Positions 11,598 to 33,769 of a DNA stretch of 64,000 bases are shown one piece after another (the first letter of the stretch is position 1; every line of letters begins with the position of its first letter). Source of the DNA: a plasmid. The DNA is taken from sequence record NZ_CP037472.2. One strand, given 5' to 3'. The translations under genes were made by a program, and so were the position numbers. The notes under the pieces were generated by a model, which saw only the letters and a list, made by a program, of their open reading frames with translations, searched no databases and had not been told where the DNA came from.

Positions 11598-12158
11598 ATG
11601 GTATTTAAAAATAGAGAATCGAAATATAATATTTTATTTGGGTCAAACTTAAGTATAGCTAATATTGCAAAGATTATGGATGTTAGTGAGTCGACTGTTT
11701 TAAAGGCTAGGCTTAGTATTTTAGGGGAATTTGCAAGTAATATAGATAACACTGATACTACCTTTGTATCTTCTAGTGATACCGATTTAGATAGTCTTGC
11801 CAGAAGTGCAACAATTGAAGCTTACAAGCTTGAAGGGGAGCGAGATAGATTTTATAAAGAGTTTTATAGAATTGCAAATTCTTATATTAACTCTCATTTT
11901 AAATATAAAGAGTTTAGTTTTCAATCTGCCTTTAAGAAATTAATTAATCTTAATGAAAAGATTTCAAGTTTAGAAAAGGAAATAAGTGGCAGCAATGATG
12001 CAAACTTATGTAGGAGACTTAGATTGAAATTACAGCATAAGATTTATAAGAGAAATCGAATGTCTAAAAATCTTATTTTAAATGATATGAAAGAAGATTA
12101 TGAATGTTTGATGAAACTAAAGGAAATTTTTAAGTCTAAGGGCTTAAAGTTGGGGTAG
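11598..12158 (+). CDS. terS: phage terminase small subunit-like protein
   Basis: 186 aa. N-terminal HTH-like segment SIANIAKIMDVSESTVLKARL. Stop lies 2 nt before the TerL start. Confidence 0.5.
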   Translation: MVFKNRESKYNILFGSNLSIANIAKIMDVSESTVLKARLSILGEFASNIDNTDTTFVSSSDTDLDSLARSATIEAYKLEGERDRFYKEFYRIANSYINSHFKYKEFSFQSAFKKLINLNEKISSLEKEISGSNDANLCRRLRLKLQHKIYKRNRMSKNLILNDMKEDYECLMKLKEIFKSKGLKLG

Positions 12159-12160
12159 TT

Positions 12161-13513
12161 TTGAAATTAAATGATTCATCAGTTTTCATTAAGTTGCAGA
12201 AGAGATTTAAACAAAAATTTAATATTAATATTGCCAAGTTTGCAAAAGATCAAAATGACAAGATTAATTTTAAATTGTTTGAAGAGAGATATTTAACGCT
12301 TAAGCAAAGAGAAGTGTTGGATGATATAAATGATAATTTTTGCTCTAAATTGATCTTTAATGGTGGAATATCTAGTGGCAAGACATTTTTGGCCTCATAT
12401 TTGCTTATTAAATTTTTGATTCAAAATCAGCATTGTTATCATAAAGATACTAATAATTTTATTGTGGGAAGTTCAATTGGTGCGTTACTTTCTAATACGC
12501 TTAAGCAGATAGAAAAGATCTGTCAGTTTTTAGATGTGGATTGTGTTTTAAAAGTTTCTCGTAGTATTTCATGTACCATTGCAGGTCTGACACTTAATGT
12601 TTATGGTGGAAAGAACAGAGATGCTTTTTCAAAGATTAGGGGAAGTAATTCTGCTTTGGTGTATGTTAATGAAGCAACTTTAATGCATAAAGAGACTTTG
12701 CTTGAGGTAATGAAAAGGTTGAGGCAGAAGCCAGCTATTGTTATTTTTGATACTAATTCTGATCATCCTGCACATTACTTTAAAACAGATTATATTGATA
12801 ATAGAGATGTGTATAGAACATATAATTTTAGCATTTATGATAATCCCTTAAATTCAAGAGATTTTATTGAAACTCAAGAAATGATTTATAAGAATTTATC
12901 TGCTTACAAAGCTAGAGTGATGCTTGGGCAATGGACAGTGAGTGTTGATGCGTGTTTTAATGAAGTTATCTTAAATGAAGATTATGTATTTAAGAGTCCA
13001 ATTATGTATATTGATCCTGCTTTTTCAGTTGGTATGGATAATACTGCTATTTGTGTCTTTGAAAGAATGGGTGATAAGTATTATGCATATATTTATCAGG
13101 ATAGGAAGCCTGTAAGTGATGATTCAATTCTTAATGCAATTAGTGTACTTGCAGAAAATTTTAATATTAATACTCTTTATGTTGAAGACCGAGATAATAC
13201 TGATGGACATGGATTTTTAACTAAGCTTATGGTATCTATTCGGCAAGGTATGAATCATTATTTTAAGATATCAGCAATTAAACCTTTAAGCAATAAGTTT
13301 GTACGGATATGTGCTTTAATACCTTTGTTTAATGCTCGCAGAATAGAGTTTTTAAAGATTATGGATAAAAATGTAATAAATGATATTTATAGCTATAGCG
13401 GAGCCTTTAAGGGAAGAGATGATTGTCTTGATGTATTAAGTGCTTGTTATTTACTCTTAAATCTTGATCATAAAGACGGAATAAAACATTTTACCAAGAG
13501 CAGATATATTTAA
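12161..13513 (+). CDS. terL: phage terminase large subunit
   Basis: 450 aa. N-terminal Walker A NGGISSGKTF and Walker-B-like ALVYVNEA. C-terminal RNaseH-like nuclease motif YIDPAFSVGMDNTAICVFE. Confidence 0.75.
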   Translation: MKLNDSSVFIKLQKRFKQKFNINIAKFAKDQNDKINFKLFEERYLTLKQREVLDDINDNFCSKLIFNGGISSGKTFLASYLLIKFLIQNQHCYHKDTNNFIVGSSIGALLSNTLKQIEKICQFLDVDCVLKVSRSISCTIAGLTLNVYGGKNRDAFSKIRGSNSALVYVNEATLMHKETLLEVMKRLRQKPAIVIFDTNSDHPAHYFKTDYIDNRDVYRTYNFSIYDNPLNSRDFIETQEMIYKNLSAYKARVMLGQWTVSVDACFNEVILNEDYVFKSPIMYIDPAFSVGMDNTAICVFERMGDKYYAYIYQDRKPVSDDSILNAISVLAENFNINTLYVEDRDNTDGHGFLTKLMVSIRQGMNHYFKISAIKPLSNKFVRICALIPLFNARRIEFLKIMDKNVINDIYSYSGAFKGRDDCLDVLSACYLLLNLDHKDGIKHFTKSRYI

Positions 13514-14492
13514 GGGTTTTATTTTAAAAATATTTAACACTTATGAATTGATTTCTTCTTCAATGTTGATAAATTATAAAATAATTTATTCTAATTAAAT
13601 CTACTTGAAATATATTATACAATTTATCATTAATAATATCAATATTATAGTCTTAATTATTATAATTTAGTGCTTAAAGAAGTTTAGATATAATGTACTT
13701 TATTTATTATTATGATATACTTAAAGTACCTTATGATATAATTATTATTGCTTTCAAATTGAGGGTGAGAAATTTAATGAAGAGGCTTTAGTTTTTATTT
13801 GATTATCAATTTGTTGTCTCATTTTAGAGACTCCTTAGAGTTAAGTATCCTTGACAGGAAGGAAAAAGATGTAAGTGAATCAAAGTTGATAAATTGTACT
13901 AAGGTTAGTAATTATAAGGAAAAAGAGAAAGTTGTTTTGGGTAGTATAGATGATAAAGTTTTTTAAAAGATATGGGTTGTAAAATTATATTCTTTAAAAA
14001 TTATTGTGTTAGGTAGCTCTGAATAGCAATTTAAAGATAATGATGTTTGTGATTTATATTTTTAAAGGTTTGGTGTTATTTTAGGGAGACAAGATCAATT
14101 AATCTTAAGGCTCAACATGTAATTTAAAATATGAATAAATATAAAGCTTTCGGAATACCGGGGCTTTGATTGTTTGATTAGCAGGAAATTCTAGAATAAA
14201 AGTTTTAGTCATTTTTTCAAATCAAATTATAAATTTGATTTACAAATCCGAATTGAATTTTTTAGATTGTCTGTATTAAAAGAAATTTGGGAATAATCTT
14301 CTTGATGTTTAATTTATTAAAGTAATTTTTATTATTTTAATAAATTCTTAAAGATTTAAGCTTTCAAATGATATAAAGTAATTGAAAAAATACACCACCA
14401 AAGCAGTGTATTTTTTCAAATTTGTTTAAAACCTATAGTTGTATATTATCTTTAATTTACATTGAATCTTTAAAAGTTTTCAAATCTTTCTT

Positions 14493-32143: not shown

Positions 32144-32222
32144 TGTTAATCTTTTGGGTTTTTAATATTTTTCAAAGTGCTTGCTTTTAATTTTTAAATT
32201 AAGGCTTTGGTAATGGAGTTTT

Positions 32223-33152
32223 ATGTTACTGTTTCAGTATGACTTTAAAATAGAATTTTATGGTGTTTTGGGTGGAATTATTAATGATCAGACTCCCAAA
32301 GTGATAATAAAGACAAAATATGGAGCACCCGCTATTAATCTTGTAATTAGTAATGAATATTCCCTTATAAGTTCAGTTCAGTGTAAAAGGGCAAAATTGC
32401 AATTATTTAATATGCCTTTGAATTTTAATGAATCTTTAACTATTGGGGATATTGTTAAAATATACTATAAAAAATTTGCTAGTGAGGGTGATTTAGATTA
32501 TAAATTTATTATGGCAGGTTATTTGGGGGCGCCTGTTGATTTTGATTTTGAGAGTGGTGATTTTATTTGCCAGTATGAAATTTATCTATTATCTAAGGAT
32601 ACTTTTTTTAATCAAGAGCTTACTGTTAAAAATTTCAAATACAAATCTTTAGAAGAGTCAATAAATTTAGTATTTAAAGATCAAGCCGTTATTTTCATAA
32701 ATCATCAAGACAGAAGCCGTCTAATAGTTGAAAGTTTTTATGTTTCTACTTTAAAAGAGTTTATAGAACGACTTATTGAAAGATATGTGAATTTAATTTT
32801 TGTTGATATTGGCGATTCAACATTTAAGGTTGATACTAGATTTATTTTTATCAATTTTAGTGCACAGGAGATAAAGAAGGATTATAAGAATTTAGAAGAT
32901 TTTGCACTTTTATTTATTCCACAAAAAGAAGTGAGGGTTGTGGGTAAATCTACTGTTAATTTTTGGAATGCAACACTCCTTTTTACAGATAAGATTAAGG
33001 TGGGAGATGGGGTTCAATTTATTAATAGATGTGGTAAGTCTGTTAAGGCCTTTGTACAAGAGACCAATGCTTATTTAAGCAATGTGGGGGATTGTACATT
33101 AGGATTAAGACTTTATGATGAATCTAATGTTTTTGAAGGTAAGGTAATTTGA
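32223..33152 (+). CDS. phage late-operon protein (tail/baseplate region)
   Basis: 309 aa. Confidence 0.45.
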   Translation: MLLFQYDFKIEFYGVLGGIINDQTPKVIIKTKYGAPAINLVISNEYSLISSVQCKRAKLQLFNMPLNFNESLTIGDIVKIYYKKFASEGDLDYKFIMAGYLGAPVDFDFESGDFICQYEIYLLSKDTFFNQELTVKNFKYKSLEESINLVFKDQAVIFINHQDRSRLIVESFYVSTLKEFIERLIERYVNLIFVDIGDSTFKVDTRFIFINFSAQEIKKDYKNLEDFALLFIPQKEVRVVGKSTVNFWNATLLFTDKIKVGDGVQFINRCGKSVKAFVQETNAYLSNVGDCTLGLRLYDESNVFEGKVI

Positions 33153-33769
33153 TGATGAAAAATTATGAATTTTACAGGAATTTAGGAAATTTAAGTGATG
33201 GTTTTATGCTTGAGGATGTTAAGAGATATTTATATAAGAATGTATTTATTTGTCGAGTTGGGGTTGTAAAGGAATTTGATTCCCAGACTCAGAAAGGGAC
33301 TGTTGTAATTGAAGAGTATGAAGATCTGGATATTTTAACTTGCAATATTTCAGCTCTAAGATTAGAGCTTCAGAAAGGAGACAAGGTAATATTGCTTCAA
33401 AGTAGCATTAATATTTTCAATGAAAAAGATGATAATTATTTTGATAAACATTATTTTTATATTTTAAATGCGGTAAATCTTGAATTTGCAGGTATAAACT
33501 TACAGAAGTTTAATATCAATACAAAAGAATTGACTTGTGTGAGTGAAGAGACTTCTTTAAGGTCTAAGAATGTAGTATGTGAGGGGGCTAATACTAAGAT
33601 TTCTCTAAAATCCTTAATTATTGAGGCGGATGACATTCAATTGAAAGGTAATGTATACATTAACGGTAAATTATTTGAAAGTCATATGCATGGTGTTGGT
33701 ACCATGACTTATGTGAATGCCGGGGGAGCTCCTACTCTTGTAACAGGAAATACCTCAGGTGTTTCATAA
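33149..33769 (+). CDS. phage late-operon protein, last gene of the block
   Basis: 206 aa. Start overlaps the previous stop. Confidence 0.45.
   Translation: MMMKNYEFYRNLGNLSDGFMLEDVKRYLYKNVFICRVGVVKEFDSQTQKGTVVIEEYEDLDILTCNISALRLELQKGDKVILLQSSINIFNEKDDNYFDKHYFYILNAVNLEFAGINLQKFNINTKELTCVSEETSLRSKNVVCEGANTKISLKSLIIEADDIQLKGNVYINGKLFESHMHGVGTMTYVNAGGAPTLVTGNTSGVS

Follow-up and report, generated by a model that had tools for sequence, protein, structure and literature searches.

A cp32-type virion gene set kept by selection on a Borrelia miyamotoi-type lp72 plasmid, probably the backbone of an lp54-family phage-plasmid

When the genes of a cp32-type phage lie divided along a linear Borrelia plasmid, with surface-protein genes between them, is the result a decaying prophage or a gene set that the replicon has kept? 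The question is raised by positions 3185-33769 of a 64,000-nucleotide stretch of plasmid record NZ_CP037472.2 (the whole of which is hereafter called the window). An earlier note, made from the sequence alone, had described most of this locus (11598-33769) as a prophage remnant. The comparisons reported here indicate that it is probably a cp32-type phage-plasmid backbone of the family that includes lp54 and the megaplasmids of relapsing-fever (RF) species, kept by selection, and that it may still form particles or contribute to them.

By sequence match, the window covers the leftmost 64 kb of an lp72 linear plasmid of the B. miyamotoi type. Positions 11000-34000 are colinear with a complete, linear, 72-kb B. 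miyamotoi lp72 at 99% coverage and 95.6% identity, and 12 B. miyamotoi records match this interval at 95-99%; weaker colinear matches lie on large linear plasmids of B. anserina, B. turicatae, B. hermsii, and other RF species. No record in the plasmid collection is identical to the window. An lp72 of 73.5 kb has been reported from the Asian isolate Izh-4 (PMC6945570); it does not appear among the matches listed here.

The element extends from 3185 to 33769, with one half of a baseplate module at either end. From left to right it reads DUF2634, DUF276, DUF735, DUF685, BlyA, BlyB, BBA14-family lipoprotein, PF57/62, PF50, PF32, PF49, TerS-like protein, and TerL, followed by cargo genes and then by a block running from portal to DUF777:

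3185-3514, plus strand: DUF2634, sheath initiator (gp25-like baseplate wedge); Pfam Sheath_initiator, E 6.7e-8
3511-6115, plus strand: DUF276, DUF735, and DUF685; Pfam E 1.3e-90, 1.2e-65, and 1.5e-20, with synteny
6248-6439, plus strand: BlyA-like holin; Pfam Holin_BlyA, E 1.8e-5, 25 bits, under the cut-off of 27
6465-6839, plus strand: BlyB accessory protein; Pfam BLYB, E 2.9e-33
6836-7204, plus strand: BBA14/orfD-family lipoprotein; Pfam Borrelia_orfD, E 8.5e-24; lipobox LLHC
7626-10662, plus strand: maintenance cluster of PF57/62, PF50, PF32 (ParA), and PF49; Pfam and cp32-syntenic position
11598-12158, plus strand: TerS-like protein, 186 aa, N-terminal helix-turn-helix; ends 2 nt upstream of TerL
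12161-13513, plus strand: TerL, large terminase subunit; Pfam Terminase_6N, E 2.6e-29, and Terminase_6C, E 7e-19
22063-23265, plus strand: portal; Pfam Phage_portal_3, E 7.4e-47; PDB 8pho (phiBB-1 portal), E 9.4e-113
23278-23799, plus strand: scaffold (DUF1357); PDB 8php_B scaffold protein, E 1.5e-10; Pfam DUF1357
23844-24464, plus strand: capsid decorator (DUF228); PDB 8phq decorators P05, P03, and P04, E 8.7e-27 to 9.5e-14
24519-25448, plus strand: major capsid protein, 309 aa; PDB 8phq_AA (phiBB-1 major capsid protein)
25439-26813, plus strand: DUF3890, DUF1506, and DUF764; Pfam and synteny
26859-27932, plus strand: contractile tail sheath (DUF787); AlphaFold2 and Foldseek
27932-29031, plus strand: DUF1463, then DUF1473 and DUF1322; Pfam; directly after the sheath gene
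29028-30437, plus strand: tape-measure-like protein; in the slot of cp32 DUF759
30455-31015, plus strand: DUF792 tail/baseplate protein; Pfam E 3.6e-67
31034-32143, plus strand: secreted repeat protein, a moron within the tail operon; signal peptide, no lipobox
32223-33769, plus strand: DUF693 and DUF777, with which the element closes; Pfam E 8.9e-79 and 5.7e-54

This is the complete cp32 order of morphogenesis, lysis, partition, and packaging genes, present as a circular permutation opened between DUF777 (which ends at 33769) and DUF2634 (which starts at 3185). The baseplate, fibre, and lysis block is displaced 16 kb upstream of the portal block, and the partition genes keep their cp32-syntenic position. 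On cp32-1, DUF2634, DUF276, DUF735, and DUF685 follow DUF777 after a 30-bp gap; likewise, TerL of B31 cp32-1 runs to the final base of the record (30750) and portal begins at base 66, which makes them neighbours once the circle is closed. On cp30-8 of B. miyamotoi, TerL and portal are separated by one bdr gene (21420-21986), and the joint therefore tolerates insertions even in circular phage-plasmids. The earlier note's premise that cp32 keeps packaging and head genes contiguous thus agrees with the synteny comparison, in which terminase and late operon are not apart in cp32. Its picture of a prophage "split in two" captured the TerL-portal division and was otherwise incomplete: the four baseplate and fibre genes at 3185-6115, and with them the opening between DUF777 and DUF2634, had been missed.

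Block order on B31 lp54, B. anserina lpA89, and B. turicatae lp158 is as in the window, as it is on North American and European lp72. The TerL-portal joint holds a cargo island in each of the three former replicons as well (5.4 kb in lp54, ~7.5 kb in lpA89, and ~21 kb in lp158, as against 8.5 kb in lp72). Every virion protein of the window is nearer to lp54 than to cp32-1 in tblastn comparisons, with portal at 59-60% identity to lp54 and 50-51% to cp32 and cp30. In a four-point bootstrap of five concatenated virion proteins, lp72, lpA89, lp158, and lp54 were separated from cp32-1 and cp30-8 in 1000/1000 replicates, and an identity matrix of PF32 gives the same grouping. Across 452 Borrelia plasmids, portal identity falls into tiers of 95-99% (lp72), 60-80% (RF megaplasmids), ~59% (lp54), and ~50% (cp32/cp30). 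Both of these paralogous lineages include Lyme as well as RF members, which means that the lp54 type had separated from the cp32 type before those groups diverged. Judged from gene order and these groupings, the TerL-cargo-portal architecture predates the split between Lyme and RF Borrelia, and we hold the evolutionary part of our reading, an ancient lp54-type backbone, with high confidence.

A competing history would have a cp32-type prophage integrate recently, be split afterwards by 8.5 kb of lysogenic-conversion cargo, and survive as a remnant. It would account for the 66 bp between TerL and portal on the cp32-1 circle, for the surface and secreted proteins, under relaxed constraint, that now intervene, and for the missing cp32 early genes. 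It is difficult to reconcile with the occurrence of the same split and permutation in B. anserina, B. turicatae, and B. burgdorferi lp54, with virion proteins that are orthologous to those of lp54 and not to those of B. miyamotoi cp30 (portal 60% vs 51%, and the bootstrap result above), or with the lack of stops and frameshifts at ratios of nonsynonymous to synonymous substitution (dN/dS) of 0.17-0.32. We consider such a history very improbable; the secondary cargo insertion within this lineage that the earlier note implied is contradicted by the shared split in B. anserina, B. turicatae, and lp54.

Three known groups come closest to the window element. lp54 (BBA08-BBA14, BBA30-31, and ~BBA37-BBA56) shares with the window the DUF777/DUF2634 opening, the cp32-syntenic partition genes, the TerL-portal cargo, a BBA52-type gene between DUF792 and DUF693, a single DUF228 gene, and an RNA element after PF49, at 36-79% protein identity. 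The cargo itself differs (ospAB, dbpBA, oppA5, BBA36, and others on lp54; P23-like and BptA-like genes in the window), lp54 retains DUF261 and a small open reading frame (ORF) between DUF1506 and DUF764 that the window lacks, and the right arm of the window, unlike that of lp54, has thyX-nrdIEF directly after the element. On the RF megaplasmids (F6 family; B. hermsii lp174, B. turicatae lp150/158, and B. anserina lpA89), "region 2" is orthologous and colinear at 60-92% protein identity; lp72 is the smallest megaplasmid version, and its DUF2634 block lies 3 kb from the left end as compared with >20 kb in B. anserina. The cp32/phiBB-1 and RF cp30 plasmids have the same gene families as the window in the same relative order, including BlyA/BlyB, PF57/50/32/49, and the myovirus-type virion genes for portal, scaffold, decorator, HK97-type capsid (by homology to 8phq), and sheath. 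They are nevertheless circular, ~30 kb in size, and contiguous at both the TerL-portal and DUF777-DUF2634 junctions, whereas the window element sits in a ~72-kb linear plasmid with both junctions apart; they also carry three decorators, ERF, integrase, DUF244, DUF261, and bdr/erp, and at 31-53% identity to the window proteins they represent a separate ancient lineage.

Is the gene set, then, merely old, or is it also maintained? dN/dS was computed by the Nei-Gojobori method for the window against European lp72, B. anserina, and B. turicatae. Head genes gave values of 0.19-0.32, tail genes 0.19-0.27, and packaging genes 0.17-0.19, as compared with 0.07-0.09 for the partition genes, 0.10-0.11 for thyX and nrdEF, and 0.51-0.60 for cargo. 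Because synonymous divergence (dS) between species is 0.6-0.8, this conservation does not stem from a lack of time. Under neutral simulation with the base composition of the window, the 23 phage-type ORFs would accumulate ~47 stops at 4.4% divergence, the level seen within B. miyamotoi alone, and ~192 at 20%; none was observed in any of six replicons. Purifying selection acts on the 23 phage-type ORFs, which are intact, and their proteins matter to the bacterium. The locus is no decaying remnant, and the word "remnant" in the earlier note does not survive these values.

Could the same ORFs be functionless, seemingly conserved through slow plasmid evolution or through hitch-hiking with essential genes (nrdEF, thyX, and par)? 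lp72 does carry housekeeping genes, and few of its genes are pseudogenes (2/72; PMC6945570). The interspecies dS sits poorly with this idea given the dN/dS of the phage-type ORFs, as do the neighbouring cargo genes, which on the same plasmid reach a dN/dS of 0.5-0.6, and the 47-192 stops expected under neutrality against zero observed. We regard this explanation as extremely unlikely.

The late block consists of 16 plus-strand ORFs at 22063-33769, with intergenic distances of -10 to +79 nt and overlaps at 5/15 junctions. Each ORF is equal in length to its orthologues in five other replicons, and frameshifts are excluded on that basis, in agreement with the earlier description of overlapping stops and starts without frameshifts. 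The 16-gene late operon of the earlier note is likewise recovered as to number; not all of its members are virion genes, since 31034-32143 encodes secreted cargo. The block is thus made up of 15 virion-type genes and one secreted cargo gene, which marks a second cargo site inside the tail operon.

The profile search for virion folds that the earlier note had proposed yielded matches to phiBB-1 structures for portal, scaffold, decorator, and capsid, and a structure model gave a sheath fold for DUF787; the note's refuting condition, late-operon proteins with no resemblance to phage virion proteins, thus does not apply. The single DUF228 decorator compares with three in cp32 and cp30. A capsid profile built from 21 orthologues matched 8phq_AA over residues 6-306 (E 2.6e-41), and the capsid protein is 67-68% identical to that of lp54 and 29-31% to that of cp32-1; an AlphaFold2 model of this capsid candidate, made from a shallow 21-sequence alignment, reached a predicted local distance difference test (pLDDT) score of just 46.8 and was not used for fold search. 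For DUF787 (pLDDT 83.4), the top 14 Foldseek matches in the PDB are all sheaths, led by diffocin CD1363 (E 2.6e-8) and followed by phage 812, PhiTE, and PVC; as modeled, DUF787 has the fold of a contractile sheath. When 20 proteins were scanned against PHROGs, just three weak matches appeared (E ~1e-3), among them one to PHROG 280 ("virion structural protein", E 9.5e-4) in the region 27932-29031.

The remaining late genes are assigned putative roles from position, with the gene order of PBSX-like tail modules as the guide for the tail genes. DUF3890, DUF1506, and DUF764 (dN/dS 0.12-0.44 against other species) would be head-completion or neck and tail-completion genes, DUF1463 a putative tail tube, and DUF1473 and DUF1322 putative tail assembly chaperones. 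The product of 29028-30437 is a likely tape measure by position and size; it is fast-evolving (dN/dS 0.52-0.59), and only its C-terminal 70 aa match the lp54 orthologue. DUF792 would be a tail/baseplate protein, and DUF693 and DUF777 would be of the baseplate hub or spike type. A small ORF between DUF1506 and DUF764, present in cp32-1 and lp54, has no tblastn match in the window, and the RF versions (window, B. anserina, and B. turicatae) lack it; the loci compared are window 26220-26265, L002 5768-6157, and L006 29755-30072. It may represent a lost neck or tail-completion protein.

The secreted protein gene at 31034-32143 contains a 48-bp tandem repeat (4.1 copies at 31613-31810). Its product has a cleavable signal peptide and weakly resembles the lp54 outer-membrane protein BBA52, which occupies the same slot, at 27% over 203 aa (tblastn E 3.3e-20); on cp32-1 and cp30-8 that slot, between DUF792 and DUF693, is empty. 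In megablast, alignment with North American lp72 records breaks off close to this repeat, at window ~31665.

Within the displaced tail-end block, DUF2634 is 50% identical to its lp54 counterpart and 42% to that of cp32-1. DUF276, DUF735, and DUF685 would be baseplate and fibre-like genes from their position, with dN/dS of 0.14-0.31 for DUF276 and DUF735 and 0.34-0.56 for DUF685, whose conservation is limited to the N-terminus. The holin-sized pair that the earlier note had seen at 6248-6839 corresponds to the BlyA-like protein and BlyB, and the BBA14/orfD-family lipoprotein gene that follows has the same place in cp32 and lp54.

The presence of sheath, sheath-initiator, and baseplate genes, the surface-protein genes embedded in the tail operon, and a best structural match of the sheath to that of an R-type bacteriocin might suggest that these proteins have been exapted for a role outside the virion, as a tailocin-like or contractile-injection device or in an envelope or vesicle function, with the head and packaging genes kept for other reasons. 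A tailocin, however, needs no portal, scaffold, decorator, capsid, TerS, or TerL, all of which are constrained here like the tail genes, and the holin genes are retained as well. Exaptation of this kind therefore seems quite unlikely to us.

On the packaging side, the terS-terL pair that the earlier note placed at 11.6-13.5 kb is supported by Pfam for TerL and by a profile match to DUF603 for the TerS-like protein. TerL is 63% identical to that of lp54 and 49% to that of cp32-1, with a dN/dS of 0.14. The 186-aa ORF at 11598-12158 has no Pfam match, and an NCBIfam scan of ten proteins gave as its sole match a sigma-70-like hit to this ORF far under the cut-off, which is not usable. A profile of the ORF and its orthologues nevertheless aligns, at an hhalign probability of 96.6% (E 5e-10), with DUF603, whose gene lies ahead of TerL on cp32-1 and cp30-8, and the ORF is 36% identical to a helix-turn-helix protein of lp54. 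Its position, size, and N-terminal helix-turn-helix suggest a small terminase.

The gap from TerL to portal (13514-22062) measures 8,549 bp and holds nine ORFs, two of them on the minus strand:

14493-14960, minus strand: cargo ORF
15458-16243, minus strand: cargo ORF, P23/BB0158-like (Pfam)
16478-17035, plus strand: cargo ORF
17081-17758, plus strand: cargo ORF, BptA-like (Pfam)
18065-18976, plus strand: cargo ORF
19267-19755, plus strand: cargo ORF
19961-20560, plus strand: cargo ORF
20575-21171, plus strand: cargo ORF, BptA-like (Pfam)
21283-21882, plus strand: cargo ORF, BptA-like (Pfam)

Lipoboxes are found in four of the nine, and a signal peptide or a transmembrane or hydrophobic N-terminus in the other five, as the earlier note's ~8.5 kb of surface-protein cargo on both strands had anticipated. 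By Pfam, one is a lipoprotein of the BB0158/P23 type and three are BptA-like; in B. burgdorferi, BptA itself is encoded on lp25 and is a factor for persistence in the tick. The BptA-like paralogues at 20575-21171 and 21283-21882 stand in tandem, with the third at 17081-17758, and 19267-19755 and 19961-20560 form a second pair of related secreted proteins. The ~1-kb non-coding stretch after TerL contains no block conserved between species.

PF32 of the maintenance cluster is of the lp54 (BBA20) type, at 78% identity to lp54, 90% to lpA89 and lp158, and 59-63% to cp32-1 and cp30-8; the B. miyamotoi megaplasmid PF32 has previously been placed closest to BBA20 of lp54 (PMC4718594). Several cp32-1 genes, namely ERF, integrase, DUF244, DUF261, bdr, revA, erpAB, and DUF643, have no tblastn match in the window.

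How might this arrangement have come about? A single crossover between a circle and a linear replicon, located between DUF777 and DUF2634, would produce exactly the order seen, with a linear arm on each side, and the gene order suggests that a circular cp32-like phage-plasmid joined a linear replicon in this way. The proposal agrees with the published view of lp54, about one third of which consists of cp32 paralogues and which has been proposed to descend from a cp32 that recombined with a linear plasmid in the distant past (PMC11008901). The changes that followed are shown by comparison: the TerL-portal joint became a landing pad for host-interaction cargo, with a second site between DUF792 and DUF693; cp32 early and recombination genes (ERF, integrase, DUF244, DUF261, bdr, erp, and DUF643) were lost; and the phage-plasmid partition cluster became the maintenance system of the replicon. 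The phage-type genes would still be expressed, presumably as three transcription blocks from separate promoters and not as one late operon, and would most likely assemble myovirus-like particles or supply subunits to them. In B. turicatae, the TerL orthologue bta098 is transcribed, at a level 16.9-fold higher in blood than in ticks (PMC4741519).

What such particles would carry is a separate matter. phiBB-1 packages ~30-32 kb (PMC11008901), though the head capacity of the lp54 type may differ. Set against a ~30-kb cp32-size head, a 72-kb replicon (72-190 kb across the family) with presumed hairpin telomeres would mean that particles could carry only fragments or other DNA, and the element would be a helper or an agent resembling a gene transfer agent (GTA) and not a self-transmitting prophage. 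Purified phiBB-1 virions have been found to contain capsid proteins encoded by lp54, which also ranked second among the packaged DNAs; that study did not decide between capsids made by lp54 itself and chimeric capsids (PMC11008901).

The last observation also bears on the possibility that the virion genes serve co-resident cp30/cp32-type phages, as alternative capsid, tail, or terminase subunits in a helper or satellite-like role, and make no particles of their own. B. miyamotoi has complete cp30 prophage plasmids with paralogues of every gene, and the undecided choice between own and chimeric capsids in the phiBB-1 preparations would fit as well. Paralogue identity of just 31-53% (capsid 31%) makes co-assembly unlikely, however, and conservation covers not a few genes but ~21 for morphogenesis and lysis, a set complete enough to suffice by itself; furthermore, one decorator gene in place of three suggests a different head. 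We judge a purely auxiliary role of this kind improbable.

A variant closer to our own reading holds that the virion module of lp54 and the megaplasmids is a domesticated particle system, either GTA-like or a second resident phage type with a single-decorator head. It would have been kept by every Borrelia lineage since before the Lyme/RF split, on a replicon that exceeds the capacity of a cp32-size head two- to sixfold, and would move other DNA (fragments, small plasmids, and surface-antigen genes) between spirochaetes and not itself. Like GTAs and PBSX-like defective phages, the window shows vertical inheritance, selected virion genes, loss of phage replication and integration genes, and a gene set on a replicon that exceeds a cp32-size head, with the qualification that capsid size of the lp54 type may differ. 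Unlike those of GTAs, the window genes lie on a plasmid that still uses a phage-plasmid partition system; random DNA packaging, host-controlled expression, and release would be predictions for them. We treat domestication as possible but doubtful.

Within the favoured reading of a selected, particle-forming or particle-contributing backbone, present-day particle production is held with less confidence than the evolutionary account. The earlier note's suggestion that the element may still make particles stands insofar as the intact late genes make this conceivable; production is plausible but unproven, and we put it at somewhat short of an even chance. Several points count against it or against the account as a whole. 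Purifying selection means that the proteins matter and does not show that they build virions. The RF versions could be assembly-defective through loss of the small DUF1506-DUF764 ORF. The late genes are cut into three blocks without identifiable promoters: a consensus sigma-70 scan of 10.6-23 kb found 71 sites as compared with 78.5 in shuffles, a scan that is uninformative in AT-rich DNA. The direction of the rearrangement, from circle to linear replicon, would follow by analogy from the contiguity of baseplate genes in other contractile-tail systems. By the title of a 2023 article by Kasumba et al., the bba40 gene of lp54 is reportedly strictly conserved yet non-essential. Lastly, lp54 is without the cp32 pac motif architecture (PMC11008901); the pac region of cp32-type plasmids lies upstream of erp, a locus that the window does not have.

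A further conserved feature of the backbone lies in the 935-bp spacer between PF49 and the TerS-like gene:

10928-11070, plus strand: candidate small RNA gene; promoter-like TTGCAA-17-TATATT, two hairpins, and a terminator hairpin with a T run

The unit comprises a 5' hairpin, a 38-nt stretch invariant in 9/9 sequences, and the long terminator hairpin, and its fold has a z-score of -3.5. Covariation supports this fold: in the nine sequences, standard pairs fill 99.3% of pair cells, and five pairs are compensatory; none of 500 shuffles was as good, and all slid controls scored far lower. One copy is present in each of 110 lp54 and megaplasmid records, at 78-100% identity, and in no cp32. The lp54 copy is the published putative noncoding RNA IRa21-a23 (PMC4453575), and the element in RF species appears to be an extension of that candidate. 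Control of plasmid copy number or of terS-TerL are candidate roles for the predicted RNA. No Rfam family matched the window or the PF49-terS spacer. A 22-nt pattern taken from the element is found exactly in every RF megaplasmid of the plasmid collection; the same pattern had 0 matches in the genome contigs collection, which we take as a limit of that collection.

As to the replicon around the element, the start of the window is offset by ~40 bp from the European lp72 record and thus lies at or near the left end of the replicon; the matching lp72 records are annotated as linear, and window G+C is 24-30%. From the left end to DUF2634 (1-3184) there is no ORF of at least 80 aa, and a 55-aa lipoprotein-like ORF at 1888-2055 is the sole plausible small gene; the same position in B. 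anserina holds >20 kb of additional genes. GC skew changes sign, negative to positive, near 8 kb, where the PF57/50/32/49 cluster lies (window ~6000-10000), which would presumably fit an internal bidirectional origin, as in Borrelia linear replicons. Beyond 58 kb the skew is ~0, and CRASP-like genes lie there on the minus strand. On the right arm, the element is followed directly by housekeeping genes:

39262-43513: thyX and nrdI/E/F

thyX is 99% identical to that of the lp72 record, and B. anserina and B. turicatae have thyX and nrd orthologues at the same position. An mlp-family lipoprotein gene at 37419-37872 (plus strand) is spread over two frames (ORFs 37419-37694 and 37666-37872), aligns with cp32-1 Mlp in two tblastn pieces, and has probably become a pseudogene through a frameshift; the Mlp-family gene at 35541-36272 is intact.

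The architecture as such is already known, in the form of cp32-like genes on lp54 and of intact phage genes on RF megaplasmids that share lp54 ancestry. Intact phage-related genes have been described in region 2 of the latter, with ancestry common to lp54 (PMC10580987), and >22 kb of sequence orthologous to lp54 has been noted on a megaplasmid (PMC4741519); the B. miyamotoi genome paper ties phage genes to cp30 plasmids only (PMC6945570). What is added here is the identical permuted, cargo-interrupted layout across the genus, a lineage apart from cp32/cp30, and purifying selection on the 23 phage-type genes. These results sharpen the question raised for lp54 in 2024, whether this essential plasmid family makes particles of its own. 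To our knowledge, no phage has yet been demonstrated in the RF species or in B. miyamotoi. If the family does make its own particles, it would represent a second, universally present Borrelia vehicle for horizontal transfer of surface-antigen genes, one that would include the RF species and B. miyamotoi.

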